NCBI GenBank assembly: GCA_947487955.1
Contig: CANKYV010000004.1
Location: 14,892 to 78,891, forward strand
DNA: 64,000 bases
Source: Alphaproteobacteria bacterium
GTDB taxonomy: Bacteria > Pseudomonadota > Alphaproteobacteria > Paracaedibacterales > CAITNM01
Reading direction: 5' to 3'
Numbering within the stretch: position 1 is the stretch's first letter; the number at the start of each line of letters is the position of its first letter. The notes beneath the pieces are model-generated. The model saw only the letters and a list, made by a program, of their open reading frames with translations. It was not told where the DNA came from and did not search any database. The position numbers and the translations under genes are program-made. Of this stretch, positions 1 through 58,955 are shown piece after piece.

Positions 1-758
1 ACCTTACTATACAGCTTGTCCAAGGAAGCTCACCTGCAGCAAATATTACAGCAACAGGTGCAATTTCTTTACCTGAGACGCTTAAAATCCTATGGATTAA
101 AGGTGATGCTAGAGGATTTGATACGCTTGTCTCAAGTGGTCGTCAATATGCTTTACCAACTCCTGCTGCTGGTACTCTTATTCGCTTTTCACTAACGCAT
201 GCCCCTGAAACATCTCCTCTTGCATGGTTTCAAGGCGATCTTCCTAATGGTTGTGGAGTAGCAATTGAGCCTAATTCTGCAGATCCTTTTATCAATGCAA
301 CATTCCCCAAAAATGGTGGCACCATATTTATAGGTTCTCGTATAACACCTGCAATTGGATTCTCTGATTTGCTTGGCAATGCAAACGGCACAGTAAATAT
401 CCAAAGGCATCCTGATTTGAATGTAAAATTAGCCTATAGAGCACCTTTAACGCTTCTTGAACCTACAACATTCCCTTATGCTGTGGAGGGAACAAGCATG
501 GATTGGATTGGTGAAGCAATAAATCCAGGCGATCCCTGTAAAGTTACGTTTGAAAAAAATGCATCACTTGTTGATCCTTCAGAAGCATCTGGTAATGCAG
601 GGTATTTCGTTGTAGCTCACCGATCACTTCAGTTGTATGCTGCTGATCCTAACGAGCGTCCATTAGCTGGTATCAAGTCACGATGGGCAGCAGGAGGCAC
701 GTCCAGCACAAAAGTTGCCCCTTCATCACCTACATTAACCATTCCAAAATTCGGTTAA
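1..758 (+). CDS. 5'-truncated member of a tandem family of secreted hypothetical proteins (paralog 1 of 3)
   Basis: Frame open from base 3 (LTIQLVQG...LPETLKILWIKGD...YALPTPAAGTLIRFSLT...WFQG...IQRHP...) to the stop at 758; same motifs as 1175..2143 and 2293..3369. Confidence 0.85.
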   Translation, partial: LTIQLVQGSSPAANITATGAISLPETLKILWIKGDARGFDTLVSSGRQYALPTPAAGTLIRFSLTHAPETSPLAWFQGDLPNGCGVAIEPNSADPFINATFPKNGGTIFIGSRITPAIGFSDLLGNANGTVNIQRHPDLNVKLAYRAPLTLLEPTTFPYAVEGTSMDWIGEAINPGDPCKVTFEKNASLVDPSEASGNAGYFVVAHRSLQLYAADPNERPLAGIKSRWAAGGTSSTKVAPSSPTLTIPKFG

Positions 759-997
759 AAACCCATATAATAAAAAATCCTCCACTGAGTAGTAGTGGGG
801 GATTTTTAATACTTATTTCACACTTTTCAAAAAATAAGAATAAAAATATTTATTTAAATATTAATTGTCTGTTCCAAAATTCAATTAGAACACTCCTATA
901 ATAAAAAATCCTCCACCGAGCAGTAGTGGAGGATTTTTAATACTTATTTCACACTTTTCAAAAAATAAGAATAAAAATATTTATTTAAATATTAATT
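741..997 (+). repeat. Tandem duplication (period ~130 bp) of the gene's last codons, terminator and AT-rich spacer
   Basis: 766-866 and 897-997 are nearly identical; preceded by att cca aaa ttc ggt taa (741) and gtt cca aaa ttc aat tag (871). Confidence 0.9.
772..807 (+). terminator. Intrinsic terminator hairpin (second copy at 903-938)
   Basis: aaaaatcctccac...gtgggggattttt; copy 2 aaaaatcctccac...gtggaggattttt. Confidence 0.75.
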
Positions 998-1174
998 ACA
1001 TTTCTTAAATAATAATTAACTATTGATTGGTATAAATACAAGTATTAAGCATTTATATAATGAAACAATACTTCATTGTGTTCTGCTTTACAGCAAGAAA
1101 CCGTACATAAGTCATTATTCCAGACCATTCTTGTTGAACTTGGTGACAACTTAAAATATTAGGGAGATTCTAAT

Positions 1175-2143
1175 ATGAATAAACAATTAAAGTTATTAGC
1201 TATAGCAGCTATATTTGCGTCATACCTTGAAGCTGCAACTATATATGAGCCCGGGCCAGAAGGCAGCGAGATGCGAATTGATACAATTCGTCTAGGTAGT
1301 GCCGGAGGTTTCAATGGTTTCGTATCCCCTTCTGCTAGCGTAAAAGCGCTTTACATTAATCTTATGCCATCAGGTGGAACAGTTGAATCGAATACAAGTA
1401 GAACTTTTTCCGCTTATGATGGAACAGGTACTATGCCTTACTTACCAAGCACAGTAAAAGACGTATACATACAAGGTGATGCTACTGACTGGGCAACGCT
1501 TGTTTTGGGTAACTCAGCTCACACTATGTATGGTCCTACGCTTGCTCCAAGCGCTTATGGTTTACCAACGCCTGCTAGTGGAACAACTGTTCACTTCAAG
1601 CTCACTCACCGCCCTTCAGTTATGCCAGAGCTTTGGTTCCAAGGAGATTTGCTTGCTAAATCTAGAGTAGTAATAGAACCTGGCTATCAAGATCCTTATC
1701 TTGCAACTGTTCTCCCAAAGAACGGTGGCAACATTATTCTTGGGGCTCCAGTAGAAACAGAAGCTGGATTCTCAACTGCACTAAATAATTGTGTAGGAGC
1801 AGTCACTATTCAAAGACATCCTAAAGTAGCAATTACTGACGCTGCTACAGAAGCTGTTCTAACACTGGGCGAAGACACAGTATTCCCTTGCTCAATATAT
1901 GGAATCAGCATGGCTGGTGCTTATGATACTACCTTCAATAAAAATGCTTACCTGGTTGACCCAGCTAGTGATTTTGCAAATGCACATGTTTCTATAGGTA
2001 ACTGTGAACTTGAAGTTTTTGCTTCAGCACGAGACCTTCCTGCGTTTGCAGATATATCTACTGCAGCGGGTAGTATTTCTAAATTTGAGAAAGCTAGTAA
2101 AGCTAAAGCATTACCTACACTTGTCCCAGCTCTTAAAGCATAA
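1175..2143 (+). CDS. Secreted hypothetical protein, paralog 2 of 3
   Basis: Signal peptide MNKQLKLLAIAAIFASYLEA; shared motifs GGFNGF, LPTPA.GT, WFQ, IQRHP, LVDP; RBS gggag. Confidence 0.85.
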   Translation: MNKQLKLLAIAAIFASYLEAATIYEPGPEGSEMRIDTIRLGSAGGFNGFVSPSASVKALYINLMPSGGTVESNTSRTFSAYDGTGTMPYLPSTVKDVYIQGDATDWATLVLGNSAHTMYGPTLAPSAYGLPTPASGTTVHFKLTHRPSVMPELWFQGDLLAKSRVVIEPGYQDPYLATVLPKNGGNIILGAPVETEAGFSTALNNCVGAVTIQRHPKVAITDAATEAVLTLGEDTVFPCSIYGISMAGAYDTTFNKNAYLVDPASDFANAHVSIGNCELEVFASARDLPAFADISTAAGSISKFEKASKAKALPTLVPALKA

Positions 2144-2149
2144 AATCTT

Positions 2150-2186
2150 TTCACCTTTTCGCTTTGCTTTTAAGCGAAGAGGTGAA
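2150..2186 (+). terminator. Stem-loop after paralog 2
   Basis: ttcaccttttcgctt...aagcgaagaggtgaa. Confidence 0.55.
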
Positions 2187-2292
2187 CCCTATTGTCTATA
2201 AAATACCTTTGAATACAACACATTATATTAATTGTTCAACTTAATTATTTATTAAATATTTTTCCTTATAAAGGTTATTAAGAGTTGCTTAC

Positions 2293-3369
2293 ATGAATAT
2301 TCATGGTTGCTACTTCACTGCAGCACTAGAGTGTCCACGCAAATTACCAAAGCAAATCTTTAAGCAGCACCTTAAGAACCAAGGAGATTTCATTATGATT
2401 AAACAGTTAAGATATGTATTGCTTTTCATTGCAATCATTGGTTTACAACTTGACGCTGCAACAAAATATACTCCAGGGATAGAAGCTGATGGGAAAAGAA
2501 TGGATAGCATATTGATGGGAAGCGAAGGTGGCTTTAATGGTTTTACACAGCCCAGTAACCGTTGCACAGAACTTTATATTAATTTAGGGGTATCCAACTC
2601 ACAACCAGCACCTAATAACATTCCAACCAATAGTTACAGAGGCTCAGGAACACCCCCTTCTCTACCATCTACCCTTAAACATCTCTATATTTACGGTAAT
2701 GCTTCGTATTTTGATACTCTTGTTTTAGGGAATACACTTTCTGGTCCAGATGCACCTATTTACCCAGCAGTAGCTTATGCTTTACCAACGCCTGCTCGTG
2801 GCACCGTCATTCATTTTTCCTTAACTCAACCACCTGCTAGTAGCCCTCTTACTTGGTTTCAAAGCCCTCTTCCTGCGAATTGTACGCTTGTTATTGAAAT
2901 TGGCTCCGCGGATCCTTACACTATCACCATGCTACCACTTGCTGGAGGCCATCTTGTTATTGGCTCTAATGTAAATTTCGCCTCTGGCTTTTCTAGTCTA
3001 CTTGGCAGCGCAACAAAGCCTGTAGTTATTCAAAGGCATCCAGAAGTAGATGCGAATGATGCCTATTTACACGCGGTGGCTACTTTAGAAGAAAATACGA
3101 CCTTTAGATGGGCTGTTTGGGGAATTAGTTTGAATGGAGCGTATTCTTCAACATTTGATGTGAATTCTGAAATTATTGACCCTGCAGAGGATGCGGCTAA
3201 TGCAGGGATTGCAATTGCTTCTGGGGAAAAACTCTCTATTTACAGTCATGACCACAGGACATTACCTGAGATTCAGTCCTATATGGGATCTGGAGGAGAT
3301 TTTACCTCTGGTGTATTTATTACAAAACAACCTGCTGCTTTACCGGTGAAATCTGTAAAGCCTTCTTAA
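2293..3369 (+). CDS. Secreted hypothetical protein, paralog 3 of 3 (true start probably ATG 2395, MIKQLRY)
   Basis: aaggag RBS before 2395; signal peptide; same family motifs. Confidence 0.85.
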   Translation: MNIHGCYFTAALECPRKLPKQIFKQHLKNQGDFIMIKQLRYVLLFIAIIGLQLDAATKYTPGIEADGKRMDSILMGSEGGFNGFTQPSNRCTELYINLGVSNSQPAPNNIPTNSYRGSGTPPSLPSTLKHLYIYGNASYFDTLVLGNTLSGPDAPIYPAVAYALPTPARGTVIHFSLTQPPASSPLTWFQSPLPANCTLVIEIGSADPYTITMLPLAGGHLVIGSNVNFASGFSSLLGSATKPVVIQRHPEVDANDAYLHAVATLEENTTFRWAVWGISLNGAYSSTFDVNSEIIDPAEDAANAGIAIASGEKLSIYSHDHRTLPEIQSYMGSGGDFTSGVFITKQPAALPVKSVKPS

Positions 3370-3466
3370 AGCCTTCTTAAAGCCTTCTTCTTACAAGTAG
3401 TAAGCCTTAGATTCTTACTCTCTCGCTCTTTTTTTTACGAACGGGAGAGGTTTTTTATTGAAAGAT

Positions 3467-3727
3467 TTAATTCTTCTCTTTTCTTTTCGAAGCTACTTTT
3501 TCGTATTGTCTGAGAGTCTTTGCCAAAGAAATTCCCAGAGCTTTGCATATCTTTAAGATAATAAATAAGCTTGGGTTACGTTTTTTATTTTCAATAAGAC
3601 TAATTGTAGAGCGGTCGATACGTGTACGCTCAGCTAAGCTTCTATGGGACATTCCAAGTTCTTTTCGCCTTTTCGCGATTTCATCAAGAACATAAAATAC
3701 AATTTGAATTTCAATGTTATCTTTCAT
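3467..3727 (-). CDS. XRE-family helix-turn-helix transcriptional regulator
   Basis: RRKELGMSHRSLAERTRIDRSTISLIENKKRNPSL HTH_3-like pattern. Confidence 0.9.
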   Translation of the reverse strand: MKDNIEIQIVFYVLDEIAKRRKELGMSHRSLAERTRIDRSTISLIENKKRNPSLFIILKICKALGISLAKTLRQYEKVASKRKEKN

Positions 3728-3894
3728 AGCAAAAGGAATTATGCAGTAATATAACTAAGATAAATACGTGACAATAGTCAGTATATAAAATAGATTGTTC
3801 GTAATTCATTAATAGATTTTTTTACAACTTTTAGTCTTTTTAACGAGCATACGAATATTTTTATTTCTTCACCTCAAAAATCAGAGAGAATATT

Positions 3895-5130: not shown

Positions 5131-5197
5131 TGTTTAAATATAACATAAGCTGGAGAATGGAGCAATTTAGAGAAACTCTAATGACAAAGACAGCAAC

Positions 5198-7349: not shown

Positions 7350-8675
7350 ATGTATCAAGCTGCACTAAATACTCTAGTTCCTCCTTTAAAAAGAAAGACG
7401 CTTTTATTATTAATTAAGCCTCTTTTCAACACTACTATAGAAAAATACTTCGCACAAAAAGAAGAAAAGAATCACCAAAGTTGGGAACATACAGCACGAC
7501 CGGAGCAACGCGAACCAACCCATCAACCATGGAATACGTGGCTAATTTTAGCAGGGCGTGGATTTGGCAAAACACGCACTGGCGCTGAAACGGTGTGGAG
7601 CTGGATTAGAGATACTCGCTATAAGCACATTGCGTTGATTGGCCAAACAATTATTGAAGCACGCCAAGTGATGGTTGAAGGTGAAAGCGGATTGCTTAGC
7701 GTTATTCCAAAAGGTGCACTTAAAAAATATCATAAAGGTGATGGCTTACTTGAATTTCATAATGGTGCGCAGGTGCGTATATATAGTGCGGATAGATATG
7801 AACGTTTGCGAGGCCCTCAGTTTGATGCAGCGTGGGTTGATGAGCTAGCAAAATTTAAAAATACAGAAGCATTTTGGGAACAGCTAAGTTTATGTTTGCG
7901 CTTGGGAAATGACCCGAAATGTATTGTCACAACAACGCCGCGTCGAAATTCGGTGCTTACTCAACTAATAAATGATGATGCTTGCGTGGTAACACGTGGA
8001 TCTACTTTTGATAATGCGGCAAATTTAGCACCGGGGTTTTTGAAAAATTTAAATAAGCAATTTGCAGGCACAAGGCTTGAGGCCCAAGAAATTTATGCGC
8101 AAATGTTGGATGAAACAGAGGGGGCATTGTGGGCACCTGATAAAATTGTTTATGAAAAACCACCCAATGAAGATTGGCGACGGATTATTATAGCGGTTGA
8201 CCCGGCAGAAACACATGCTGAAACTAGCGATGAAACGGGCATTATAGTGATGGGGTATCACAGTAATGGGCAGGCATATGTGCTAGAAGATGCTACACAT
8301 AAGGCGCCACCATCGCAGTGGATACGAAAAATAGTGGAACTGTATGAGAAATATGAAGCCGACCGGGTGGTGGCTGAAGTAAATAAAGGTGGTGATATGG
8401 TTAAAGATTTACTGTTGGCGTGCAGTTCGCATATTAGTTACAAGGGGGTGCGAGCAACGCGAGGTAAAATGATTCGAGCCGAACCGATTGTGAGTCTATA
8501 TGAGCAAGGTAAAGTTAAGCATGTTCAACCCCTACCCCAACTAGAAGCGCAGTTATGTGCGTGGGTACCAGAAGTTTCAAATAAATCTCCTGATCGTTTA
8601 GATGCGTTGGTTTGGGGGTTAACGGACTTATTCTTATCAAACGAAGCGCGACATCAGTATAAGGTTTGGGTGTAG
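7350..8675 (+). CDS. Terminase large subunit, gene-transfer-agent/phage type
   Basis: Walker A LAGRGFGKT, RLRGPQF...WVDE Walker B, TTTPR, nuclease AVDPA and SPDRLDALVW. Confidence 0.92.
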   Translation: MYQAALNTLVPPLKRKTLLLLIKPLFNTTIEKYFAQKEEKNHQSWEHTARPEQREPTHQPWNTWLILAGRGFGKTRTGAETVWSWIRDTRYKHIALIGQTIIEARQVMVEGESGLLSVIPKGALKKYHKGDGLLEFHNGAQVRIYSADRYERLRGPQFDAAWVDELAKFKNTEAFWEQLSLCLRLGNDPKCIVTTTPRRNSVLTQLINDDACVVTRGSTFDNAANLAPGFLKNLNKQFAGTRLEAQEIYAQMLDETEGALWAPDKIVYEKPPNEDWRRIIIAVDPAETHAETSDETGIIVMGYHSNGQAYVLEDATHKAPPSQWIRKIVELYEKYEADRVVAEVNKGGDMVKDLLLACSSHISYKGVRATRGKMIRAEPIVSLYEQGKVKHVQPLPQLEAQLCAWVPEVSNKSPDRLDALVWGLTDLFLSNEARHQYKVWV

Positions 8676-10809: not shown

Positions 10810-12648
10810 TTGAGCTTTATGCATTATATTGCTGTATTTCTTTTTTTTATCCTTACTGCATTAAATTCGTTGAAATGCTCTTTCTTCGAAATAGAGTTTG
10901 AAGATAATGCTACGATTTCTGCCCCATTATTTAGTGATAATGGCATGTTATTAAAGGGTAAAACCGATAGCACTATTATAACTTTTGAAAATTTCTATAT
11001 TATAGAAGCGCCAAATTCAAGTTACCCACTAAGTGATATTATTATAGAAGCACGATTAGAACGAGGCATGGTAAAAGATGCAAATGGCATTGTAAAAATC
11101 GCACCAGCTGTTTTTAGCTTGCTTTATAGCGAGTCGAGAAATTACAGAATTACTGTTGAATCACAAGCTAATCAATTAGCAAATCGATTTAGAGAAGGAA
11201 AGCATTTTACACGCGAGGAATACGCTCTAGGCATGCTGATTTATAGATTAATTCCAAACGCATCTACAGAAACATTTCAACAGTATTTTTCTCCTGAACG
11301 AGCTCAAGCTATTTATGCTACTTTCATGCAATCTTCATTTAGACCTGGAAGTGATTTCACGCTTAAAGAGCAGGAACGAGCGTTAAAAATTTTAAGAAAA
11401 CACAATGACTCTACATACTTAAACGCTCTAGAAAAAAAATTTTCTCAGGCACGCGCGCTGGCTCTTTATCAAAATTGGACTCACCGTCCTGGAACTGACT
11501 TTACTGATACAGAATTTGATAAAGCCATACAAATTCTACACGAAACACATTATAAAACAGAAGAAGATTACTTAACCGCATTACAGCAAAAATTTTCTCA
11601 AGTACGGACCCTTGCTCTTTATCAAAACTGGCCACACCGACCTGGAGCTAATTTTACTGATACAGAGTTTACAAAATCTATATCTCTTTTACAGAATTCA
11701 ATAGATACAACTGAGGAACATTGCTTACAAATATTACAACAAGCATTTTCCCCTGATCGTGCTCTAGCTCTTTACCAAAACTGGCCGTATCGCCCTGGTG
11801 CTGAGTTTACTGATACAGAATTTAATAAAACCATAAATCTTTTACGTAGTTTATGGCGTCCAACAAAAGCAGATTGTTTAAAAAGATTACAAGAAAATTT
11901 TTCTAAAATGCGTGCGCTAGCCCTTTACCAAAATTGGCCACAGCGACCTGGAGCTGATTTCACTGATACAGAATTTGATAGAGCCATGGCAATGATTTTA
12001 GCTGCTGAAAATAAAACCACAAAAGGCTATTTGGAAATACTATCAAAAGAATTCCCTCGAGCACGCGCGCTGGCTCTTTATCAAAATTGGACTCACCGTC
12101 CTGGAACTGACTTTACTAATGAAGAATTTGATAAAGCCATACAAATTCTATACGAAACACATGATAAAACTGAGGAAGGCTACTCAAATGCATTGAAACA
12201 AAAATTCTCTCAAGCACGCGCGCTGGCTCTCTATCGCAACTGGCCGCATCGTCCTGGTGCTGATTTTACTGATACAGAATTTGATAAAACCATGGAACTT
12301 CTCAAAAATGTGTCAGAGAAAACAGAAACTGCTTGTTTAGCCAAATTGCAAGAATATTTCGCTGATGAACGTGCTCTAGCTCTTTTCATAAACAGACCAG
12401 ACCGACCTGGGGCTGACTTTACTAAATTTGAATTGAGTAAAACCACATGGTTACTGCAAAAAGCAACATCTCAAAATGAGCAAGGCTATCTAAATGCTCT
12501 ACAAACAGTATTTTCTTTTGAGCGTGCGCAGGCTCTTTTAAATGCATTTGTTAGCGGAGATCTGATTGTACCAAAGACTCAAGAGGAAAAAGTGGCAGAT
12601 GAAATACATTGCAAATTTCGTGGAGAAGAACTTTATAAAGGTGGTTAG
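10810..12648 (+). CDS. Secreted protein with nine ~51-aa tandem repeats
   Basis: Signal peptide; RALALYQNWPHRPGADFTDTEF core every 153 bp. Confidence 0.9.
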   Translation: MSFMHYIAVFLFFILTALNSLKCSFFEIEFEDNATISAPLFSDNGMLLKGKTDSTIITFENFYIIEAPNSSYPLSDIIIEARLERGMVKDANGIVKIAPAVFSLLYSESRNYRITVESQANQLANRFREGKHFTREEYALGMLIYRLIPNASTETFQQYFSPERAQAIYATFMQSSFRPGSDFTLKEQERALKILRKHNDSTYLNALEKKFSQARALALYQNWTHRPGTDFTDTEFDKAIQILHETHYKTEEDYLTALQQKFSQVRTLALYQNWPHRPGANFTDTEFTKSISLLQNSIDTTEEHCLQILQQAFSPDRALALYQNWPYRPGAEFTDTEFNKTINLLRSLWRPTKADCLKRLQENFSKMRALALYQNWPQRPGADFTDTEFDRAMAMILAAENKTTKGYLEILSKEFPRARALALYQNWTHRPGTDFTNEEFDKAIQILYETHDKTEEGYSNALKQKFSQARALALYRNWPHRPGADFTDTEFDKTMELLKNVSEKTETACLAKLQEYFADERALALFINRPDRPGADFTKFELSKTTWLLQKATSQNEQGYLNALQTVFSFERAQALLNAFVSGDLIVPKTQEEKVADEIHCKFRGEELYKGG

Positions 12649-17924: not shown

Positions 17925-18176
17925 TCGCCTACTCACAGCTATAGCCAGACTCATATAAATTGAGCACATAAATTTAGATTGCCGCGCAATCTTAGATTGC
18001 TCGCAAAGACTTTAAACGCTTAATTTTTGTCTTCACGAGGAGCATAAGCGACGTAGCGATCTTATAATTAAATTGTAGTGTTCTGACTATATTCCCAACA
18101 ATATCACAAGGATACTCAACCAAAAGATATTGATGAGAGACTTGCAGGTGTGTTCAATTTTCTATTTTCATCCTCG
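17925..18176 (-). pseudogene. Displaced copy of the ccmF 3' end, interrupted by a MITE
   Basis: Reads IEHTCKSLINIFWLSILVILLGI[MITE]AVSRRY versus CcmF IELTHKPLINIFWLGILIVLIGIGVSARC; exact 20-bp core ccaaaagatattgatgagag. Confidence 0.85.
17940..18091. mobile_element. ~150-bp MITE (copy 1) with TA target duplication
   Basis: Ends tatagccaga...tctgactata; near-identical copy at 50988-51138. Confidence 0.85.
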
Positions 18177-18232
18177 ATCTGCAATAGCCGAAGGGCTATA
18201 ATCACAAGGATCAAAAGATTAAGGCTGAATAT

Positions 18233-19321
18233 ATGATTTTTCGGATAGTTGATAAAATTTTTTTAGGTATTTATTTACTTTGGATAGGATTTAGTCATGT
18301 AGGGGAAGTATATAATTGTATTTTAATAGATGTATTTGCACATCAAGTAGGCTCACCAGTATTTGGTGAGCATGACCCCATTAAAATCAAGCAGCATCTT
18401 AATAATGGTATAAATCCAAATAGTACTTGTTTAAGTGGTCTTACACCCTTGCATTGGAGTAGAAATGCTGAAACAACTCGGGTTCTGATTGAAGCAGGGG
18501 CAAAAATTAATGCTAGGGACAGCAATCTCGATACGCCACTTCATCTTGTCCCTGATGCTCAATCAGTAAAGTTGCTTATTGCACATGGAGCGAGCCTAAA
18601 TGCTAGAAATTATACAGGAGATACACCACTTCATACGGCAAAAAATGCTGAAATTGCTCAAGCTCTATTAGATGCAGGGGCAGATATTAATGCCTATAAT
18701 CGCCTTCGGCAAACACCTCTTCATGTGCACCATGATAGAGTAAATACTACCAGCGAAGAGTTAAAAAGTAAGAGAACAGAAATTGTCGACTTGTTAGTTA
18801 GGTCTGGCAGCAATACAAATTTAACAGATCGAATAGGTAATAAGCCTTTAACGCAGACTTCTAAAAACTTTGATGTTAATCTTTATAGCTCAGATACAAT
18901 ACGATATGTGATAAGCGGCATACTTTTTTCTATTGGTATAGTATTTCTTTTCGCATCACGCATCTTCAACAACAGAACAAGACAAATTTTTGGCTGGATT
19001 AGTTTACTGAGTAATCCATTTTTATTATTTTTTTCTCTAACATCCTATATACCCATGACTAGTGTATTATACTGGCTACCCGGATCGGTGGCTTTTATAA
19101 CATTACTACACTGCTTTGCTAGTTTTATTTTTTATCATCGGTTTATGCTTTTTATTAGCAAATCAACTTTCGATACGTATTTATCAAAAAGTTTATCATA
19201 TTGTTTATGTCTTATCCCATATTCTATTCTATTAATTACTTTCGGGGGTCCAGAACTAATTTTAGGTGCAATTATTTCCTGTCCTTTGCTGCTCATGATT
19301 ATTATTTATAGACGCCGTTAA
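18233..19321 (+). CDS. Ankyrin-repeat protein with C-terminal transmembrane helices
   Basis: Repeated TPLH...LI.AGA.INARD units; hydrophobic C-terminus. Confidence 0.9.
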   Translation: MIFRIVDKIFLGIYLLWIGFSHVGEVYNCILIDVFAHQVGSPVFGEHDPIKIKQHLNNGINPNSTCLSGLTPLHWSRNAETTRVLIEAGAKINARDSNLDTPLHLVPDAQSVKLLIAHGASLNARNYTGDTPLHTAKNAEIAQALLDAGADINAYNRLRQTPLHVHHDRVNTTSEELKSKRTEIVDLLVRSGSNTNLTDRIGNKPLTQTSKNFDVNLYSSDTIRYVISGILFSIGIVFLFASRIFNNRTRQIFGWISLLSNPFLLFFSLTSYIPMTSVLYWLPGSVAFITLLHCFASFIFYHRFMLFISKSTFDTYLSKSLSYCLCLIPYSILLITFGGPELILGAIISCPLLLMIIIYRRR

Positions 19322-21236
19322 ATATACCGCATCTCGCACTTACTCCAATTCCTATCAACACGATAAGGATACCAAGCCAAAAGATATTGATGAGAGGTTT
19401 GTGGGTGAGCTCAATTTTTATCCTGTCTTCTTCTTTAAACACAGTAGCGTGAACATCATCTAGCTCTACACGTGTGATCGCCGTTTGATGCTTAGTAACA
19501 CGACTAATGTGAAAATGCTGGATTTCAGGTTGCAACAGTTTTTCAGCTATGGAAATCGTGAAGATTTCTTTGGTGATACTTGGCGATTCGACGCTGGTTT
19601 GAGACATATAATGCAAAGGTTGCGCTGCAAAAGTGGACGACAATTGATTGAGGTTAAACTCCTGTTTGGTGGTAAAAATTTCTGCGTGCGATGCACCCAA
19701 TATACAAAGCCCTACCCCCAAATGCGCAGCAACAAATCCTTTGGTAAAGACAGACTTGATGTGATTAAGAGAACTCAGCATCAACCAAAATCCAACAAGA
19801 GCAGCACAAATGGCGAGAAGATGAAAATGTGGTTGCACAAGCAAACACCAAAGACCAGTGCAAAGCCCCGCGCTGGCAAAGCTCCACCAGTGCGCTTTCA
19901 TATGGGGAGCAAGACCCGCAAAAAGCAGAAGGCCCAATAGGCAGGGGTTGATGTATTGATGAAAAAAGCTTTCGTCGATGCTGATGTTTGCGTTAAGGCA
20001 GATTTTTGCTAGTACGGGAACTAGAATGAGAGCGCAAAATACGACAAGAATGCACAAGAAGCCGATGGGGATGGCGGTGCGGAAAGTAGGCACTGGCCCC
20101 CGTTTTGCAACGGGGAGTCTAGTGGAAAAACCTGGATTCTCACGCGAAGCAAAATCTTCGCTCAGAATGACGCTAAAAGAAGGATTGCCACAGCCCTGCG
20201 GACTTCGCAATGACCTAGTTGCACTAGCGCTTTTTTCGTCATCCTGAGAGAGAGCTAGCTCTCGTGAGGATCCAGTACATAATTTCGACAAGACAGACTG
20301 GATTGCCACGCCTCTTACAGAGGCTCGCAATGACGCAATGGAAATTACGCCAACCATCAATGTGCAAACTCCAAGCCAAATGCCGTTAAATGCATCAAAG
20401 CCAAAACTGTGCACTGAAACAAGCACACCGGAACGCACCAATGTTAATCCTAACATCACGATGGGAAATGTGATGAGCAAGCAAAGTCTTTGCCGGCGTA
20501 CATCATTTCTACAAACGTGCACCGCTGCAGCAATGGCAAGCCACGGGAATAGTGAGACAGTTTCAACCGGATCCCAAAACCAGAATCCTCCCCAGCCAAG
20601 CTCTCCGTAGGCCCAACGAGCACCAAGAGCAAGACCTAGCGTTATGAGGCCAAAACACAAGCGGGTATAAAATGGAATTTTGGGATCATCTGGTGTAAGG
20701 CATGCTTTGATCCAGAGCAGGAAGCATAGAGTTTGACCGGCATATAAAATGGGAGGATGAATAGCTAGATATGGATTTTGCAAGGCAGGATTTAGATCTT
20801 GCCCTGCTATCATTTTGACAGCTAACACCGCGAAGGGGTTTGCAGCAAAATACAGGTAACCACCAAGAGCAAGTAATATAAAAGATGCTAAACGAATACA
20901 TTCACTGTGACGAAGACGTGTTACCCAGGCAGCGAGAAAAGTAAAAAATAGCAACATGGAGCCTTCGTGATTACCCCAAATACCAGCAATTTTGTAAAGA
21001 AGTGGTGTGCTTTGATGTGAATTGAGCCAAACGTTAGCAATAGAAACGGCATCAGTTAAATAGAAAAACAAAAGCACGCCCACAGCAAAAGCGCTTATCA
21101 AAAAAGGCGCCATAAGTTTTGCATTAGTTTTTGCAAAAATATTGCGCACCAAAATGATAGCGAGCACGCCAAAGAGAGCATCGATAAGAAAGGTGAGATG
21201 AAGGATAGGATCAAGCAAGTAATAGAACGTAGTCAT
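19302..21236 (-). CDS. ccmF: Cytochrome c biogenesis heme lyase CcmF, carrying an in-frame palindromic insert
   Basis: WGNHEGS, LNPALQ, IHPP, WAY.ELGWGGFWFWDPVE, RSGVLVSVHSF. Confidence 0.93.
   Translation of the reverse strand: MTTFYYLLDPILHLTFLIDALFGVLAIILVRNIFAKTNAKLMAPFLISAFAVGVLLFFYLTDAVSIANVWLNSHQSTPLLYKIAGIWGNHEGSMLLFFTFLAAWVTRLRHSECIRLASFILLALGGYLYFAANPFAVLAVKMIAGQDLNPALQNPYLAIHPPILYAGQTLCFLLWIKACLTPDDPKIPFYTRLCFGLITLGLALGARWAYGELGWGGFWFWDPVETVSLFPWLAIAAAVHVCRNDVRRQRLCLLITFPIVMLGLTLVRSGVLVSVHSFGFDAFNGIWLGVCTLMVGVISIASLRASVRGVAIQSVLSKLCTGSSRELALSQDDEKSASATRSLRSPQGCGNPSFSVILSEDFASRENPGFSTRLPVAKRGPVPTFRTAIPIGFLCILVVFCALILVPVLAKICLNANISIDESFFHQYINPCLLGLLLFAGLAPHMKAHWWSFASAGLCTGLWCLLVQPHFHLLAICAALVGFWLMLSSLNHIKSVFTKGFVAAHLGVGLCILGASHAEIFTTKQEFNLNQLSSTFAAQPLHYMSQTSVESPSITKEIFTISIAEKLLQPEIQHFHISRVTKHQTAITRVELDDVHATVFKEEDRIKIELTHKPLINIFWLGILIVLIGIGVSARCGIFNGVYK
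20132..20334. repeat. Cluster of four CGTC-type palindromic (REP/RPE-like) units inside ccmF
   Basis: ggattc...gaatgacg; ggattgcc...cgcaatgac; cgtcatcc...ggatccag; ctggattgcc...cgcaatgacg. Confidence 0.85.
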
Positions 21237-23619: not shown

Positions 23620-23662
23620 TTATCTGCGCCTTTCTTCAAAGAAATTCACTAAAAGTTCAGCG
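23620..23662 (-). repeat. Displaced copy of the tadA 3' end
   Basis: 23631-23662 identical to 24283-24314 (32 bp); encodes AELLVNFFEERRR*. Confidence 0.92.
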
Positions 23663-23663
23663 T

Positions 23664-23948
23664 TTAAATTCTTGATATAGCTTTTTTATAAACAAGGGAT
23701 TTATCACGTTTTCCAATAGCAATCACTTGCACAACAAAGCGGTCTTTATAAATTTTATATACTAATCTGTAGCCAATAGAGCGTAGTTTTATTTTGTAGC
23801 AATCATTCATCCCAAGAAGTTTATCTTTATTTCTGACAGGATTCACAAGGCATTTAGCCAATTTATTTTTGAATTGCTGCTTGATAGATGGTGATAAATC
23901 ATCCCACTCTTTTTTTGCTGATTTTAAAAAAACTAAACTATAAGTCAT
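23664..23948 (-). CDS. relE: RelE/StbE-family toxin
   Basis: AKKEWDDL...CYKIKLRSIGYRLVY...VIAIGKRD. Confidence 0.9.
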   Translation of the reverse strand: MTYSLVFLKSAKKEWDDLSPSIKQQFKNKLAKCLVNPVRNKDKLLGMNDCYKIKLRSIGYRLVYKIYKDRFVVQVIAIGKRDKSLVYKKAISRI

Positions 23949-24186
23949 CGAGGGTAACGGCTATTTCTTCTTCACCCATTCGACTTTTTATAATTTCAAC
24001 AAGATTTTGATCATCAATTAATTCAAGCAATTTTTCGTAGTAATCTGCCGGCACACAATAAAACACAGGTTGATTGTGATTGAGAATAGCTATAGGTTCT
24101 CCGTGACCGTTCTGCATAGTAAGCATAGGATTCTTTTTCAGATCTGATATGCTTGCTGCGTAAAGACTATGAACTTCGTGAACCAT
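23938..24186 (-). CDS. Phd/YefM (StbD-like) antitoxin
   Basis: ASISDLKKNPM...PIAILNHNQPVFYCVP; overlaps the toxin start. Confidence 0.9.
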   Translation of the reverse strand: MVHEVHSLYAASISDLKKNPMLTMQNGHGEPIAILNHNQPVFYCVPADYYEKLLELIDDQNLVEIIKSRMGEEEIAVTLDDL

Positions 24187-24227
24187 AGATTCTCCTTTAA
24201 TTTCTATGATTGTACCACAAAAAAAGC

Positions 24228-24262
24228 ACTTTAAAAAGATTTTTTTAAGGTCTTTTTAAAGT
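24228..24262. promoter_or_regulatory. Inverted repeat, likely TA operator
   Basis: actttaaaaaga-N11-tctttttaaagt upstream of the antitoxin. Confidence 0.6.
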
Positions 24263-24274
24263 CAAAAATCAACA

Positions 24275-24706
24275 TCAGCGCTTTTCTTCAAAGAAATTCA
24301 CTAAAAGTTCAGCGCATTCTTTTTCTAAAACACCACCGATAACTTCAGGCTTGTGATGGGAATGTTCAAAAATTTTTGGGCCGTGCTCTACCCCACCTGA
24401 TTTGACATCGTAGGCACCGAAGACAACCTTGCCAACACGCGCTTGGGCGATAGCTGCGGCGCACATAGGGCAAGGCTCTAACGTGACGTAGAGCGTACAG
24501 TCATTTAAGTATTGGGTTTGTAAATGAGCAAAACCTTGCGAAATGACGATGAGTTCTGCATGGTGTAGAGGGTTTTGGTCAGCGATGCATTGGTTATGAT
24601 CTTGGGCAATGATTTGGTTATTATAAACTAGCACTGCCCCAACGGGGACTTCATTGTGGGATATAGCACATTTTGCCTGATGCAAAGCTTGATGCATATA
24701 GTTCAT
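24275..24706 (-). CDS. tadA: tRNA adenosine deaminase
   Basis: EVPVGAV, HAE, TLEPCPMC. Confidence 0.9.
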   Translation of the reverse strand: MNYMHQALHQAKCAISHNEVPVGAVLVYNNQIIAQDHNQCIADQNPLHHAELIVISQGFAHLQTQYLNDCTLYVTLEPCPMCAAAIAQARVGKVVFGAYDVKSGGVEHGPKIFEHSHHKPEVIGGVLEKECAELLVNFFEEKR

Positions 24707-34598: not shown

Positions 34599-34657
34599 TT
34601 ATGTATACCTATTTCACTCACATATCTCCTATGCTAAAGAAGATAGGTTAATTTTTA

Positions 34658-38539: not shown

Positions 38540-39936
38540 TCATATCACATACCTGCTATAGTACTCACAAATATATTAATTTTTATTTAATGCAATTGGT
38601 TTTATGAAGAAATATCTCTCCATTTTTATGATTTTTACGGCAACACAAGCTTTTAGTGCTAATCACAGTTTTTATATTGGAGGTAGTCTTAGTCAAACCT
38701 CTATTTCAGGAAAGCGCAATGATTCTGCAACAAACGAAAGATTAGTAGATAAAAACTTAACGAACAATAAAAGCATTCATAGAAAAAATGCTTATGGAGG
38801 AGTATTTGCCGGATATCTATTTCGAATTGAAAATTTTGGTATAGGGCCAGAATTTTTTTATAATTACGGTAAACTTGAAGAGACAATCAGCGGCACTCAC
38901 TCAGATCCACTTGGTCCTATTAATACTACTTTTGATATTACCCATAAACTCACTAACCAAGCTGGTGCAAACGTGAGGTTCGGATACTTTTTAGATAGTT
39001 ATTTTTTATATACTCTATTAGGTATTCATTCACAAACAAGTCAATTTTATGCAAAAGCAAAACATATTGATTTGGGTGTTGGCACGGAAGAAGACTACAA
39101 TTACAAAACAAAAAAGAAAAATACAAACGTTTTTAGCTTTGGGTTTGGCGTGCAAAAGTCAATCGCTGAAAATTATGCGATTGGCTTAGAATGCAAATTT
39201 GCGAACTTTCCAAACAAAAATTTCACTTGGAATTTAGGAGATGCTGACACAACCAAACTAACCAGTTCATTTAAATATCAGTTACGGTCGATCAATTTAA
39301 AACTTATGTACGTGTTTTAGCGATATTTGTTATATTACTTTAACTTTTTATGTTATTTTTTATGTTTTTTACCATAAAATTTGTTTAAAAAATAACACAC
39401 TATTGACATTTTAGTTTATAATCCTTAGCATCTTGCGTTACAGGCAAAGGATTTAAATACTTATGAAACGCACTGAAGAGAGAAAAAAAACTAAAACTTT
39501 ATTCCTTTTTAATAATAAAACTCCTGCAGTTAACGGAAGAAATGATAAAGATATAGTTATTTTTTCAGGTTTTAATTCTGTGACCTTGTCCGTACTGAAA
39601 TTTGCAAGTTACAAAAACGAGTTGAATTAAGTGATGTTAATTATTAAACAAGCAATATCGTTAGCATTTCTGATATGCCTTTTTAAAATCTCATTATTTG
39701 GGCCAACAATTTTTGCAACATCAGACCCAGCGCATCCTGATAATTTTATCGCTAGGTTTCCTGAGAGAAGTGGGGATTACCCTGCATATATTGGAGAATT
39801 TAAAAGGTTTCTCACCTCAACTCCACAAGGTCAGCGGTTTGTCCAAGAAGTTTTAAAAGATAATATCAATGGTGTGCCAGCTAATCTTTTAGCTTTTAAA
39901 AGAGATAGCACTGTCGATACTTACAGAACCTGGTAC
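38216..39936. repeat. Inverted repeats (38216-~38515 and ~39640-39936) formed by the 5' modules of members B and C
   Basis: About 16 mismatches over a ~225-bp core by manual alignment. Confidence 0.85.
38604..39320 (+). CDS. Small outer-membrane beta-barrel protein
   Basis: Signal peptide, FYIGGS, GGVFAGY, VRFGY, GFGVQ, C-terminal YVF. Confidence 0.85.
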   Translation: MKKYLSIFMIFTATQAFSANHSFYIGGSLSQTSISGKRNDSATNERLVDKNLTNNKSIHRKNAYGGVFAGYLFRIENFGIGPEFFYNYGKLEETISGTHSDPLGPINTTFDITHKLTNQAGANVRFGYFLDSYFLYTLLGIHSQTSQFYAKAKHIDLGVGTEEDYNYKTKKKNTNVFSFGFGVQKSIAENYAIGLECKFANFPNKNFTWNLGDADTTKLTSSFKYQLRSINLKLMYVF

Positions 39937-50949: not shown

Positions 50950-50984
50950 ATTGCCACGCCCACTACGTGGGTTCGCAATAACGC
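50950..50984. repeat. Single degenerate REP-like unit
   Basis: attgccacgcccactacgtgggttcgcaataac resembles gattgccacgcctcttacagaggctcgcaatgac in ccmF. Confidence 0.65.
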
Positions 50985-50987
50985 AAC

Positions 50988-51138
50988 TATGCCAGACTCA
51001 TATAAATTGAGCACATAAATTTAGATTGCCGCGCAATCTTAGATCGCTCGCAAAGACGTTAAATGCTTAATTTTTGTCTTCGCGAGGAGCATAAGCGACG
51101 TGGCGATCTTATAATTAAATTATAGTACTCTGGCTATA
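50988..51138. mobile_element. ~150-bp MITE (copy 2)
   Basis: Near-identical to 17940-18091; right end tctggctata. Confidence 0.85.
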
Positions 51139-56329: not shown

Positions 56330-56330
56330 A

Positions 56331-57050
56331 ATGCGCAAATTACCCGCTTTTGCTTTGATTGAAATCGCTATCGCACTTTGTGTACTCGGGGTTATTGGCT
56401 ATATGACAATGCCACTACTTGGCAAAGTTCAACAGTGGCAACGCGTAAGGACAACAAGTGCGCATCAAGAAAAAATTATTGAAGCATTAGCGGGTTATGT
56501 ACTTGCTAATAAGCGCTTGCCCTGCCCTGCAGCAAATTCAAACGGACAAGCCCAAACTGTGTGCACAAACGATACTAAAGCTGGGTTTGTACCCTATCAA
56601 ACATTAGGTATTGATGCAAAAACAGCTAAAGATGGTAACCATCATTGGATGACATACGTAGTGCAACCAAACCTTACAGCTGCGCGCATTAATTGGATAC
56701 AGCCGATGTCGGATTTACGCGTTGATCCCAAAACAATTTTTTGTAAAGTCCCCGCAGAGGAAACATTGAAGGTACTTAATGAGCAACATCAACGTTGTGT
56801 AGAAGCCCCTGATTTTGTGGCGATTGTATTGATTGCACATGGTATGAGTGGCGGGTATGCGCTGGAGAGTGGAGCAATCCAGCCGACTGTGAGTTTAGAC
56901 GCTGATAAGATAATGAATGTTGTGCGAGGTGATCAATATATAACAAAAGCGCCGCAATATCGCGACGCTTCGGTTTTTGATGATACGGTGCTGTTTGCAA
57001 GCCGCAATAATTTAATGGCACAGTGGGCTAAAGTACCGTGTCAACATTAG
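56331..57050 (+). CDS. Prepilin/pseudopilin-type protein
   Basis: AFALIEIAIALCVLG N-methylation motif; RLPCPA, GFVPYQTLG, AKDG. Confidence 0.85.
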   Translation: MRKLPAFALIEIAIALCVLGVIGYMTMPLLGKVQQWQRVRTTSAHQEKIIEALAGYVLANKRLPCPAANSNGQAQTVCTNDTKAGFVPYQTLGIDAKTAKDGNHHWMTYVVQPNLTAARINWIQPMSDLRVDPKTIFCKVPAEETLKVLNEQHQRCVEAPDFVAIVLIAHGMSGGYALESGAIQPTVSLDADKIMNVVRGDQYITKAPQYRDASVFDDTVLFASRNNLMAQWAKVPCQH

Positions 57051-58000
57051 AATTTCCGTTTCTGGTTTGCCAAATATTCTGAGCACCTTGCATATTGTTC
57101 TTGCAATTCTAATATTGTTTTTAAGTCTGATGAAGCTTCTTTTTCTGAACCAAATAAGTCATTTAATAACTCATGACCTGCGTAATAAGGAAAAGAATCT
57201 CCTAATTTTAATAGATCCTTAGCATATTTCACGCTATTTCCCGACATATTTAGACGATTGAGACTATCTGTTGGAAAACAATACCCAAACTTATCCTCTG
57301 TATCGAAATAATCTACATGCATACCGATAGTTTTTTTCCAAGTTGGATCTAGCTGATCTCGACTAGTAACTTCAGGCACATATGCACTCTCTTTATCATC
57401 ATGAAATTCTACAAAAAGAAGAGCTTCTTGCTGGCTTTTTGATAAGACTCGAGGCCAAGAAGCGATTACTTCAAGGATACCATTGGTTAGAATATCTTTT
57501 GAACCAATACAAAGAGTTTTTGAGATAGTTGCTGGCCATTGCGCAACCCACATACCCCCTGCACTGGTACTATAGTTGTGAAGTCTACTTTGAATTTTAA
57601 TTTTTATATCTTCAATATTATTTGTGTTAGTTGGGACTTCTATATGCTCACCTGGTAATGGTAACATTCCCGAAAATGCTTCTTTCTTACCATCTCTAAG
57701 AGTTACTTCTATTAATATCTTAAGATCATGAAGTGCATGTGCACCTTGTTCTGAGAATCCATATTCTGAAACATAGGGAATTCTAAATAACCCGCTGCCC
57801 GGACGTTTTCCAGAGGTGTGGCTATTAACGTATTCTTGATCCTCTAAAAATTTACCGCCTTTAACGGGGCCAATGTTATGATTCCAGATCTTTAGAACTA
57901 CACCTTCTTGAGCATTTACTTCTCTTATTTCTGACGCCGACAGGTCAGAAAATAACCCAAGGGCAGACAAAATCAACATAAATACTTTAACATTTCTCAT
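57047..58000 (-). CDS. Secreted hypothetical protein
   Basis: Signal peptide ending LSA-SE. Confidence 0.75.
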   Translation of the reverse strand: MRNVKVFMLILSALGLFSDLSASEIREVNAQEGVVLKIWNHNIGPVKGGKFLEDQEYVNSHTSGKRPGSGLFRIPYVSEYGFSEQGAHALHDLKILIEVTLRDGKKEAFSGMLPLPGEHIEVPTNTNNIEDIKIKIQSRLHNYSTSAGGMWVAQWPATISKTLCIGSKDILTNGILEVIASWPRVLSKSQQEALLFVEFHDDKESAYVPEVTSRDQLDPTWKKTIGMHVDYFDTEDKFGYCFPTDSLNRLNMSGNSVKYAKDLLKLGDSFPYYAGHELLNDLFGSEKEASSDLKTILELQEQYARCSEYLANQKRKF

Positions 58001-58089
58001 AAAAATACCTTTCTTGCTATTGTTAGGTTAGTGATAGCAATTTATAGAAAGGTAAGCAATAGAGAACACTGGTTAATTCCTTAATTTAA

Positions 58090-58695
58090 TTAAGGCGCAG
58101 TACTAACTGATTCAGCTGCTTTTGGCAAAGAAGAGGTACTCAATATTTCTTCAATCAATACGAAAAGTTTTTCAACAGACTCATGAAGAGGAATCTCGCT
58201 TAAAATTTCACCTGTAGTGACTCTAGATAGAGGTTGTATTAAAAAGTCTTGATGAAGCTCTTCAGGCAATCCCATTTTACTTAAAGAAAATTCGCCAATT
58301 TTGTCTATTTCTCTTATTTCGACAATAGCTTTACTGTATGCGAGATCAATTTTACTATCATCTTTATACGCTCCCATTGAACCGTTATTTGGCGAAAAGT
58401 AAGGGGGTGATAGCACATCAAATTTTGTTTGAAATTGGCGAATACATGGCGTTTCACTCTCAGCCATTAGTCCAAAATTATAAGTAACACTAGGGTTATC
58501 TACAGTCTTTAAGAAATTCTAGTAATAATTTTTGAAAATATCATCAATAGTACTTTCTGCTCTTTCATTACTTTCAGTAAGAACAGGTATTTGACTAGAA
58601 TCAAAAGCTTTAATCATCGGTATGGTGATACCTTCTATTGCAAAAAAATCATCTAACTGTCTGACATTTTCTTTAAAAATTTTCTCAAATCGGTA
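58090..58695 (-). pseudogene. Degraded hypothetical gene
   Basis: Frame of 58090..58467 continues upstream through a single TAG at 58519-58521 (FEKIFKENVRQLDD...NYY*NFLKTVDNP). Confidence 0.6.
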
Positions 58696-58748
58696 AATCT
58701 ATACCCAGAATTGTTGTTTTTTTTAATGCATTCAATACGCATAAAATT

Positions 58749-58955
58749 GGAGAAAGTGGTGAATATGCACTTGATAATGGGTCAATTCAACCTATTACAA
58801 GTAGTGATGCTGACAAAATTACCAATGCTGCACGCAACAATATTTTTATAACAAAAACGAATCGCACTGGACCAGCTGTGTTTGACGATACAATTTTATT
58901 TGTGACCAGAAATAATTTGACGGCGCAGTGGGCAAAGTTTCCGTGTAGAAGATAA
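58749..58955 (+). pseudogene. Orphan second 3' end of the pseudopilin gene
   Basis: GESGEYALDNGSIQP...VFDDTILFVTRNNLTAQWAKFPCRR*, 39 of 69 aa identical to 56841-57050 by manual alignment. Confidence 0.9.

Follow-up and report, generated by a model that had tools for sequence, protein, structure and literature searches.

Displaced gene ends in the window

Why would genes as unrelated as ccmF, tadA and a pilin-like gene each be followed by cargo and then by a copy of their 3' end that lacks a start? This order was proposed in a sequence-only reading of the window (the whole stretch of 64,000 nucleotides that was analysed), and all three cases are indeed found in the window sequence. The genome that holds the window is denoted G000 and its relatives G002-G013; the lineage is related to protist endosymbionts. 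With a probability of roughly 55%, we consider the downstream copies (scars) to be insertion marks from host homologous recombination with a fragment bearing a homologous gene tail and cargo.

The tadA locus is composed as follows:

24275..24706, - strand: tadA-like deaminase, intact target (PRK10860, 141.7 bits, just below the cut-off of 150)
23938..24186, - strand: cargo, Phd/YefM (YafN-like) antitoxin (family matches below cut-offs)
23664..23948, - strand: cargo, ParE/RelE-family toxin (Pfam)
23622..23662, - strand: tadA scar, immediately past the toxin stop codon (alignment to tadA end 24274-24314)

The scar is identical to the end at 24274-24314 for 39 of 41 nt, and at both differences there are relatives that agree with the current end. 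In G002 and G004 the final codons of the tadA scar and the intergenic DNA match the insertion-less G011 and G006, and the current gene end is a different allele from that of the scar. Sequence comparison thus supports a putative foreign replacement end at tadA in these two genomes.

The ccmF locus is built in the same order:

19302..21236, - strand: ccmF, intact target (domain/family match)
18233..19321, + strand: cargo, ankyrin-repeat protein with hydrophobic C-terminal part (Pfam)
18091..18165, - strand: ccmF scar, conserved residues decayed (alignment to ccmF end 19348-19421)

The ankyrin gene is convergent with ccmF, overlaps its end by 20 nt and was not found behind ccmF in the relatives fetched. 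The scar shows 79% identity to its own gene end over 71 nt and stops 46 nt ahead of the ccmF stop; relatives agree with the current end at 12 of the 15 differing sites.

The third locus is that of the prepilin-like gene:

56331..57050, + strand: prepilin-like gene, target, mosaic (comparison with G010 and G005)
57047..58000, - strand: cargo A1, 317 aa, no known family (Pfam scan, G005 comparison)
58090..58467, - strand: cargo A2, 125-aa ORF (G005 comparison)
58749..58955, + strand: pilin scar, open 68-codon frame ending in AKFPCRR and a stop codon (alignment to end ~56847-57050)
59137..61116, + strand: 659-aa gene past the pilin scar (G006 homologue)

Pfam and NCBIfam gave no match for the protein of 56331..57050, whose putative label of pseudopilin goes back to a prepilin-like N-terminus. 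Its gene is G010-like in the 5' part and G005-like over the 3' ~460 nt: counted as G005-like to G010-like, informative sites stand at 99:169 for the MFS gene upstream, 18:34 for the 5' part and 67:36 for the 3' part of the pilin gene, and 115:178 for the helicase downstream. The best breakpoint has p=6e-4 (2/200 in permutation, p=0.01). A homologue of A1 adjoins the pilin gene in G005 too (76% aa, 82% nt), and A2 is homologous to a portion of a 575-aa protein that G005 encodes at this position. A foreign replacement end is supported here as well. Since the donor-like tract measures ~460 nt and the scar ~205 nt, a simple single crossover does not fit unless the scar was shortened later.

The pilin scar itself shares 59% aa identity over 68 residues with the current end. 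At the nucleotide level it is closer to G006 (72%) than to the current end (61%), and it branches outside the G000/G005/G010 clade (93% bootstrap). It is stop-free, with pS 0.74 and pN 0.25; as proof of selection the open frame was set aside as weak, given a neutral-decay probability of 0.14. A homologue of the 659-aa gene (33% aa) sits right behind the pilin gene in G006, hence this gene is likely older cargo; between 61116 and the helicase no trace of an older scar was seen by eye. In G006 two successive scars lie downstream of the pilin gene.

Two further features had been singled out:

742..997, + strand: tandem ~126-nt duplication, 742-866 / 872-997, no cargo (sequence comparison)
7350..8675, + strand: large terminase, stand-alone, possible GTA terminase, in no scar (Pfam Terminase_6N/6C)

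The first was presented as a fourth, cargo-less case. The duplication is there (93% identity across 126 nt), but as a case of cargo insertion it does not hold: only ~17 last coding nt are included, the remainder being a terminator-like hairpin and AT-rich intergenic DNA in a tandem paralog array, and without cargo this terminator tandem repeat is a weaker and different case. The terminase was correctly recognized and has a syntenic homologue in G010 and in G005. Likewise, the window was said to be without integrase or transposase, and none scored among the 54 window ORFs scanned against Pfam.

Contigs from public runs span the window junctions (X2 56940-58855, X1 57453-59905, X1 23631-24312 and X4 18076-18253), where X1 and X2 possibly stem from the source study itself. 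The relatives compared all belong to other species; near-identical strains in the public runs carry the inserts, and a joint skipping the insert was not seen in their contigs. No empty-site or circle joint was found in six runs (X1-X5, X7), represented by contigs, in which rare variants drop out, and with small coverage for X3, X4, X5 and X7.

Frequency and position of the scars

The genome-wide search for downstream 3' ends that the sequence-only reading suggested was run with a threshold of at least 35 bits, for intergenic copies on the same strand, and about 1% of the genes proved to be scarred. In the whole G000 genome a downstream 3'-end copy follows 12 of 1341 genes (11 once curated). 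As controls, 3'-end copies upstream number 2 (both paralog fragments at contig ends), 5'-end copies 1 upstream and 3 downstream, and mid-gene and opposite-strand copies 0 each. Four genus relatives (G010, G005, G003 and G013, partial) yield 16 of 1450 genes (15 curated), a rate that is not unbiased since their contigs were picked as long and holding target genes. Over the five genomes together, a downstream 3' copy follows 28 of 2791 genes; upstream copies number 5 for 5' ends (binomial p=3e-5) and 3 for 3' ends (p=2e-6), with the reservation that kin are not independent. The expected preference for 3' over 5' ends is thus borne out.

Curation removed two antisense ORFs, C12_44705 (G000) and C26_179682 (G003). 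Left out of the counts were G005 lepA (20 nt) and trmL, both inside called ORFs, and the Rhs-like C1_61081, which matches an internal segment. An ungapped scan found no additional class.

The targets comprise at least 25 different genes, including ccmF, tadA, murB, fabH, lepA and an AI-2E transporter, and none of the 7 scars in G010 is at a gene scarred in G000. Strictly aligned scar length ranges from 21 to 183 nt (up to ~205 nt for the pilin scar). The spacing between gene and scar is 0.6-6.2 kb in all 26 curated cases and at most 4.5 kb in 25 of them; 22 of 26 scars start more than 30 nt ahead of the gene end, and all three window repeats exceed 30 bp. The other boundary lies no more than 15 nt from the stop codon in 19 of 26 scars and over 15 nt beyond it in 5 of 26. 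Ends near the stop fit a homology model, because similarity between orthologues is expected to end there.

Outgroups were scanned over 200 kb each, giving 0 of 168 genes for G028 and 1 of 146 for G040, where the single match also covers mid-gene and was rejected as a broken paralog; this sample is too small to warrant a claim of genus-specificity.

Recurrence in relatives and origin of the gene ends

The claim that a scar keeps the original downstream context is supported at several loci: scar and downstream DNA match insertion-less genomes at galU (G010), at AI-2E (G004 versus G003) and at the murB terminator. Two scars in a row lie behind a trmB-like gene of G010. In G000 and G005 the murB cargo is common to both (82% and 71% nt) and the murB genes are 74% identical at the nucleotide level, yet the scars match their own gene at 79/80 and 66/69 positions; since each scar fits its own diverged murB despite the common cargo, the scars have apparently been renewed. 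The AI-2E scars of G000, G006 and G009 begin ~57-62 nt ahead of the gene end and have the same MNT-HEPN-like cargo ahead and different genes after. Identity to the own gene end reaches 95-100% for the murB, tadA and alpha/beta hydrolase scars of G000 and for three G010 cases.

Cargo types include toxin-antitoxin pairs, ankyrin and a NUDIX protein. The proposed role as an effector-acquisition route is therefore too narrow. Among the G000 cargo proteins scanned, neither integrases or transposases nor restriction-modification families were matched.

It had been predicted that relatives would match the scar rather than the current end. The opposite is observed: the pooled core alignments contain 95 differing sites at which relatives agree with the current end, against 35 that favour the scar (33:25 for synonymous codons, 61:10 for non-synonymous ones, one site unclassed), in line with tadA and ccmF in the window. 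This split does not tell a generally foreign end from plain duplication followed by decay, which predicts the same pattern and fits the differences equally well. The synonymous excess reaches only p=0.05 when the pilin case is included and p=0.27 when it is left out, under a null model that allows the living copy to drift. A swapped C-terminus is supported in 2-3 cases, for the pilin (as a mosaic) and for tadA of G002 and G004 (as an allele), and is not distinguishable in the pooled sites. The left-to-right chimaeric gradient that was predicted was not found in the scars (p=0.38; 9/17); an apparent gradient seen earlier was an alignment-edge effect and disappeared in strict cores.

Mechanism and alternatives

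Under host homologous recombination, a short fragment from a related strain or species would bring a conserved gene tail with its neighbouring accessory gene(s). Integration would proceed via the tail alone, leaving the target gene whole and its old tail beyond the cargo. The fragment may be trimmed and then circularised, allowing one crossover (a route seen in E. coli, PMC3240628); alternatively, one homologous and one illegitimate junction could be involved. The 3' bias likely results from selection, as the gene retains its promoter. Once present, the repeat would allow pop-out and re-entry of the cargo, by which the scar is renewed.

This reading draws on the frequency and 3' polarity of the scars, the right boundaries at the stop, the pilin mosaic, the tadA allele swap in G002 and G004, scars abutting ancestral DNA, stacked scars and murB scar renewal. 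RecA and DprA are present in G000, ComEC is intact in 11 of 13 relatives and a GTA-like capsid is encoded by 11 of 13, with portal, protease, capsid and connector in G010. A GTA-like particle, or uptake of the ComEC type, might plausibly deliver the fragments. Counted against it are the pooled sites (which fit duplication and decay), the absent gradient, the pilin tract exceeding the scar, the 5 of 26 post-stop duplications, the lack of an empty-site or circle joint in the contigs, the failure to find Ku for end joining, the comEC frameshift in the G000 assembly and overlaps of 20-50 nt, which are short for RecA. Capsid and portal were not found in the G000 assembly either; contig C4 ends at the syntenic position, which points to a possible assembly gap for the capsid, and loss of the GTA was set aside in view of the synteny with G010. 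The single crossover originally proposed is a candidate route only, since the pilin donor tract extends further than the scar.

It is possible, though we regard it as unlikely, that end-less cargo was joined to the ends of a staggered break or of a gap under repair, with duplication of 20-200 nt of the recipient's own DNA. The distal copy would then decay, and selection would retain those events that lie close to 3' ends. Several scars with 95-100% identity to their own end, the pooled site pattern (its null), duplications that include post-stop DNA and its description for restriction-modification genes (PMC2853133) agree with such ligation, which nonetheless leaves unexplained the foreign pilin tract linked with common cargo, the tadA allele swap, the right boundaries, of which 19 of 26 lie close to the stop, and fresh scars at the same gene with the same cargo in diverged species (murB, AI-2E).

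We find it improbable that scars form rarely and afterwards spread and renew, with a donor scar acting as second homology arm in a double crossover (adding cargo and removing nothing downstream) or with gene conversion homogenising the copies. The AI-2E scars with similar starts and cargo but different following genes, the renewed murB scars and the long pilin donor tract would suit this; the expected gradient from a decayed left to a fresh right side is undetected, a 50-nt arm would be a poor competitor against long downstream homology, and the first scar is left unexplained.

Integrative elements that restore the 3' end of their target are well known, and the tyrosine integrases of G000 comprise two long ones and two of XerC/XerD size. 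Remnants of such elements (attL/attR in gene 3' ends, integrase lost or acting in trans) are nevertheless a very improbable source, given at least 25 targets, variable lengths, cargo of only one to three genes, no integrase match in the scanned cargo genes or next to an att site, and no common core in 11 left junctions (compared by eye only); moreover, contig C7 is without cargo-flanking scar and the nearest scar on C1 lies ~21 kb from the integrase. Decay of whole-gene tandem duplications, although tandem paralogs are common in the genome and 742-997 lies inside such an array, is largely refuted by the positional counts (G000 mid-gene remnants 0 versus 12 at 3' ends) and by the sharp left ends with which near-identical scars fuse to the cargo tail.

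Comparison with known systems

Such scars are already known from toxin and restriction-enzyme loci. In the accounts of rhs C-terminal displacement (Jackson et al. 2009, PMC2935791) and of sequentially displaced T6SS effector modules (Kirchberger et al. 2017, PMC5361080) an intact gene, incoming DNA and an old 3' end moved downstream are likewise described without integrase, with fragments of variable length, stacked arrays, and models involving a circle and single crossover or homology-facilitated illegitimate recombination (HFIR). In those systems the exchanged tip, a toxin with its immunity, is itself the payload and belongs to one gene family, whereas here the conserved housekeeping tip is only an anchor, the payload lies in the cargo behind it, and many single-copy genes without relation to one another serve as targets; a conserved core with toxin tip and immunity gene, typical of Rhs, CDI and T6SS, was not found among them.

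As insertion with long target duplication, Furuta et al. 2010 (PMC2853133) describe inserts below 20 kb that are flanked by long direct repeats of variable length and lack any other mobile element; two examples, from H. influenzae, overlap the 3' ends of genes. That cargo is restriction-modification and its insertion is blamed on DNA breaks by these systems; here the repeats are centred on coding 3' ends, some with a foreign allele. For E. coli, Amarir-Bouhram et al. 2011 (PMC3240628) report that with one-sided homology 56 of 60 clones carried a partial duplication of the homologous end, measuring 109-950 bp in the 14 that were sequenced, in a laboratory plasmid-conjugation assay; the scars here are mostly shorter. 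Canonical HFIR combines insertion with deletion rather than duplication, and is further marked by microhomology of 3-10 bp where the illegitimate joint forms and by a need for RecA. Here no deletion beside the anchor was found, recipient DNA is duplicated and the downstream context is retained. GTA clusters of protist endosymbionts are described by George et al. 2022 (PMC9254644), with function given as unknown; as in these Holosporaceae, a head-tail cluster is accompanied by a large terminase encoded elsewhere, and the description of the clusters draws no connection to insertion scars.

Our search of openly readable papers found no such scars at housekeeping genes in Holosporales. What is new is their presence at housekeeping genes that are unrelated to one another, seen across a genus of endosymbionts, together with their apparent renewal per lineage.

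Implications

Host-restricted bacteria with genomes of 1.5 Mb are usually viewed as gene losers. Here about 1% of the genes bear a mark of gain that is datable and has an orientation; it is found at housekeeping genes, no integrase being involved, and speaks of ongoing within-genus exchange of toxin-antitoxin modules, ankyrin and lineage-specific proteins. The scars offer a simple means to list recent gains and to test GTA against transformation as supplier. More speculatively, and in our judgement rather doubtful, gene end, cargo and scar might form self-renewing, enzyme-free cassettes, carried on GTA-sized fragments that take accessory genes from one endosymbiont species to another, with housekeeping gene tails as addresses and the scar driving re-insertion. 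If true, these intracellular bacteria would acquire genes mainly by such a route, among others, and the scars would be a genomic read-out of GTA activity.

Gene-cargo-scar units in the window

The window was compared with itself to verify the duplications. At ccmF, tadA and a prepilin-like gene this recovered the order that the sequence-only reading had described: an intact gene, inserted "cargo" and then a start-less copy of the gene's own 3' end (the "scar").

Gene-cargo-scar units (window positions)
19302-21236, minus strand: ccmF, target; then an ankyrin gene in convergent orientation, and behind it a copy of the ccmF end (71 nt, 79%)
24275-24706, minus strand: tadA, target; then genes for a Phd-type antitoxin and a ParE/RelE toxin, followed by a copy that matches at 39/41 nt
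56331-57050, plus strand: prepilin-like gene, target; then two reverse ORFs and an open 68-codon copy (59% amino acid identity)
742-866/872-997: fourth case; cargo-less tandem duplication, mostly non-coding terminator DNA

The fourth case, placed earlier at 741-997, is a genuine duplication, but mostly of terminator DNA rather than of a gene end. Among the 54 window ORFs scanned, no integrase or transposase was recognised, in agreement with the absence claimed before. Misassembly is unlikely, since contigs from public sequencing runs span the unit junctions (the source study may itself have produced two of these runs, X1 and X2).

Several repeats were observed alongside. A 156-nt dispersed repeat (93% identical; 17936-18091 and 50984-51138; four genome hits including itself) adjoins the ccmF scar. 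The ccmF interior (20050-20350) carries an in-frame insertion of about 70 codons that is also a dispersed repeat, with 18 other genome hits; the relatives' ccmF matches are interrupted here, and the insertion resembles the repeat elements inside Rickettsia coding sequences. Elsewhere in the window we found three paralogous proteins in tandem (1-3369; no known family; array kept in the genus relative G010), a 612-aa protein with 51-aa (153-nt) tandem repeats (10810-12648; no convincing Pfam family) and three large paralogs of 967, 1293 and 950 aa (31695-42483; no Pfam hits) that share an almost identical N-terminal region but have unrelated C-termini.

The genome (G000) is assembled into 48 contigs totalling 1.55 Mb, at 98% completeness. 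Among named records, tadA is closest to Candidatus Finniella inopinata (76%) and to Candidatus Odyssella sp. (75%); Finniella are described as symbionts living in the cytoplasm of cercozoans and ciliates (PMC11909080). We read the source as a probable Finniella-related Holosporales bacterium. DNA identity to the nearest genus relatives is only about 79%.

Genome- and genus-wide scan

For all 1341 G000 ORFs of at least 100 aa (simple in-house caller), 150-nt end and middle segments were searched against 10 kb on each side, counting intergenic matches of at least 35 bits. Copies of 3' ends were found 12 times downstream and twice upstream, against three and one for 5' ends; middle segments and the opposite strand yielded no copies in this search. 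One downstream 3' copy was discounted as an antisense ORF and both upstream 3' copies are contig-end paralogs. A whole-CDS scan gave 13 downstream end matches against 9 internal ones, mostly weak. Scars are therefore neither rare nor equalled by 5' copies, the two outcomes that the sequence-only reading had said would refute it.

The same scan on parts of the relatives' genomes also gave downstream 3' copies (G010 7/380, G005 6/647, G003 2/274 with one antisense, G013 1/149). Pooled with G000 this amounts to 28/2791, against 5 upstream 5' copies (p=3e-5, though kin are not independent). The outgroup sample (314 genes) is too small for judging lineage restriction. The 26 curated scars reproduce their genes from a point 21-183 nt ahead of the gene end onwards (median 52), with a gene-to-scar spacing of 0.6-6.2 kb; 19 stop within 15 nt of the stop codon, a boundary favoured by gene-end queries.

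Targets in G000 include murB, fabH, a galU-like gene, two alpha/beta hydrolases and genes for an RsmD-like methyltransferase, an AI-2E transporter and a PAP2 protein; a 20-nt case at lepA lies outside the counts. The inserted genes encode TA pairs, ankyrin, NUDIX, MFS and peptidase proteins, along with many proteins that have no family. The lone upstream 5' copy, at a SpoU/TrmL gene (L182, G000:C12:29142-30916), is a genuine mirror image of the 3' pattern; similar 5'-end scars lie upstream of ccmF in G005 (C4:13853-17154) and of an hscB-like gene, named from context, in G010 (C17:250070-251528).

Recurrence and age of the copies

The same genes are hit in several species, with cargo that differs: AI-2E is scarred in 6 of the 11 genomes examined, tadA in G000, G002 and G004, fabH and murB in both G000 and G005, and an engB-like gene in both G010 and G005. 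In G006 two scars stand one after the other behind the pilin, and in G010 behind a trmB-like gene. The murB cargo is common to G000 and G005 and has core-like divergence, yet in either genome the scar and that genome's murB are 96-99% identical. A dead copy of 70-80 nt would not be expected to keep such identity since the G000/G005 split, and the scars therefore appear to have been regenerated or converted within each lineage. This points to homology-dependent events and away from a one-off illegitimate insertion.

Past the scar, DNA continues as in insert-less relatives (galU of G000 against G010; AI-2E of G004 against G003; the murB terminator; tadA of G002/G004 against G011/G006; pilin scar 1 of G006 against G004). 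Alleles inside the repeat are a stronger test, because target duplication also predicts ancestral DNA behind the scar. For tadA of G002 and G004 the last scar codons are those of G011 and G006, and the present gene end is a different allele. The window pilin locus has G010-like flanks (G005-like:G010-like sites 99:169 in the upstream MFS gene, 115:178 in the downstream helicase) and a G010-like 5' part (18:34), with a G005-like 3' part of about 460 nt (67:36; breakpoint permutation 2/200); its cargo is also present in G005. The scar groups outside the G000/G005/G010 clade, and the gene behind it has a homologue directly 3' of pilin in G006. Two displacements in succession would be the simplest reading; alternatively, the scar and the gene at 59137 would be the imported foreign piece. 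At AI-2E the G000 scar shares residues with G005 and the present end resembles the G006 group, which carries the same cargo (HEPN-like gene 87% nt, against 78% for AI-2E itself); triplet counts along the gene reveal no clear breakpoint.

Cargo-less relatives had been expected to match the scar. Over the pooled strict core alignments, relatives agree with the current end at 95 sites and with the scar at 35 (synonymous 33:25, non-synonymous 61:10), with no positional gradient along the scars. An incoming foreign gene end is supported at pilin and at tadA of G002/G004; the pooled counts speak against its generality. A pN/pS of 0.38 over 11 G000 scars rejects decay of the scar alone but is compatible with scar decay combined with drift in the living copy (p=0.05; p=0.27 without pilin). 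At the window tadA and ccmF the alignments show scar decay and say little on the donor.

Mechanism

Our preferred reading (probability roughly 0.55) is that a fragment from a related bacterium, carrying the tail of a gene and its neighbour, would integrate through that tail only, leaving the old tail beyond the cargo. In E. coli, one-sided homology is reported to give the same product by trimming, recircularisation and a single crossover (56/60 clones; PMC3240628), and Jackson et al. proposed this route for rhs (PMC2935791). Target duplication without a homologous end is less likely; in the genomes compared, near-identical donors would look the same as such a duplication. Propagation with the scar as second arm is unlikely overall, even if it suits a pilin tract longer than its scar; that tract fits better with such an arm, later erosion, or a homologous plus illegitimate junction as modelled in PMC5361080. 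Decayed integrative elements are improbable, with none of the four G000 tyrosine recombinases inside cargo, and decayed whole-gene duplication is highly improbable.

In its workings the pattern resembles both Rhs C-terminal displacement and "insertion with long target duplication" (PMC2853133), but the toxin tip that defines the former is missing here, and the RM cargo that, as described there, defines the latter is missing from the G000 cargo proteins scanned. A search of the literature, with few subscription papers within its reach, turned up nothing on scars of this sort at Holosporales housekeeping genes. Separately, L183 (G000:C1:60694-68658, near tRNA-Thr) encodes a 2525-aa putative Rhs-like protein; behind it come a small ORF and an orphan second copy of one internal segment from its C-proximal part, an arrangement that looks like classic tip displacement.

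Recombination and uptake machinery

G000 contains recA, dprA and a PD-(D/E)XK protein that we read as AddB-like; a search for Ku found none. Its comEC is frameshifted near residue 460-476 (C7:37550-39600), either a pseudogene or an assembly error, and is open in 11/13 relatives. Searches of the G000 assembly detected neither capsid nor portal; a GTA-like capsid is present in 11/13 relatives. In G010 a GTA-like portal-protease-capsid-connector (head-tail) cluster, broken up by lineage-specific genes (L153:2312-14647), starts at a position syntenic with the end of G000 contig C4 (81174), and is absent from the G000 assembly. The window encodes a stand-alone large terminase (7350-8675, plus strand), possibly that of a GTA; in Holosporaceae GTAs, too, the terminase is reported as encoded separately (PMC9254644). 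Near-identical public strains have diverged local tracts in the DEAD-box helicase beside the pilin locus (61314-61563, X2) and in ccmF (20805-20999, X1), which suggests homologous exchange with diverged donors, ongoing in the helicase case.

Overall, the gene-cargo-scar pattern is a real, well-quantified feature; that its scars would be self-renewing and fed by a conserved GTA is a rather doubtful, tentative extension.
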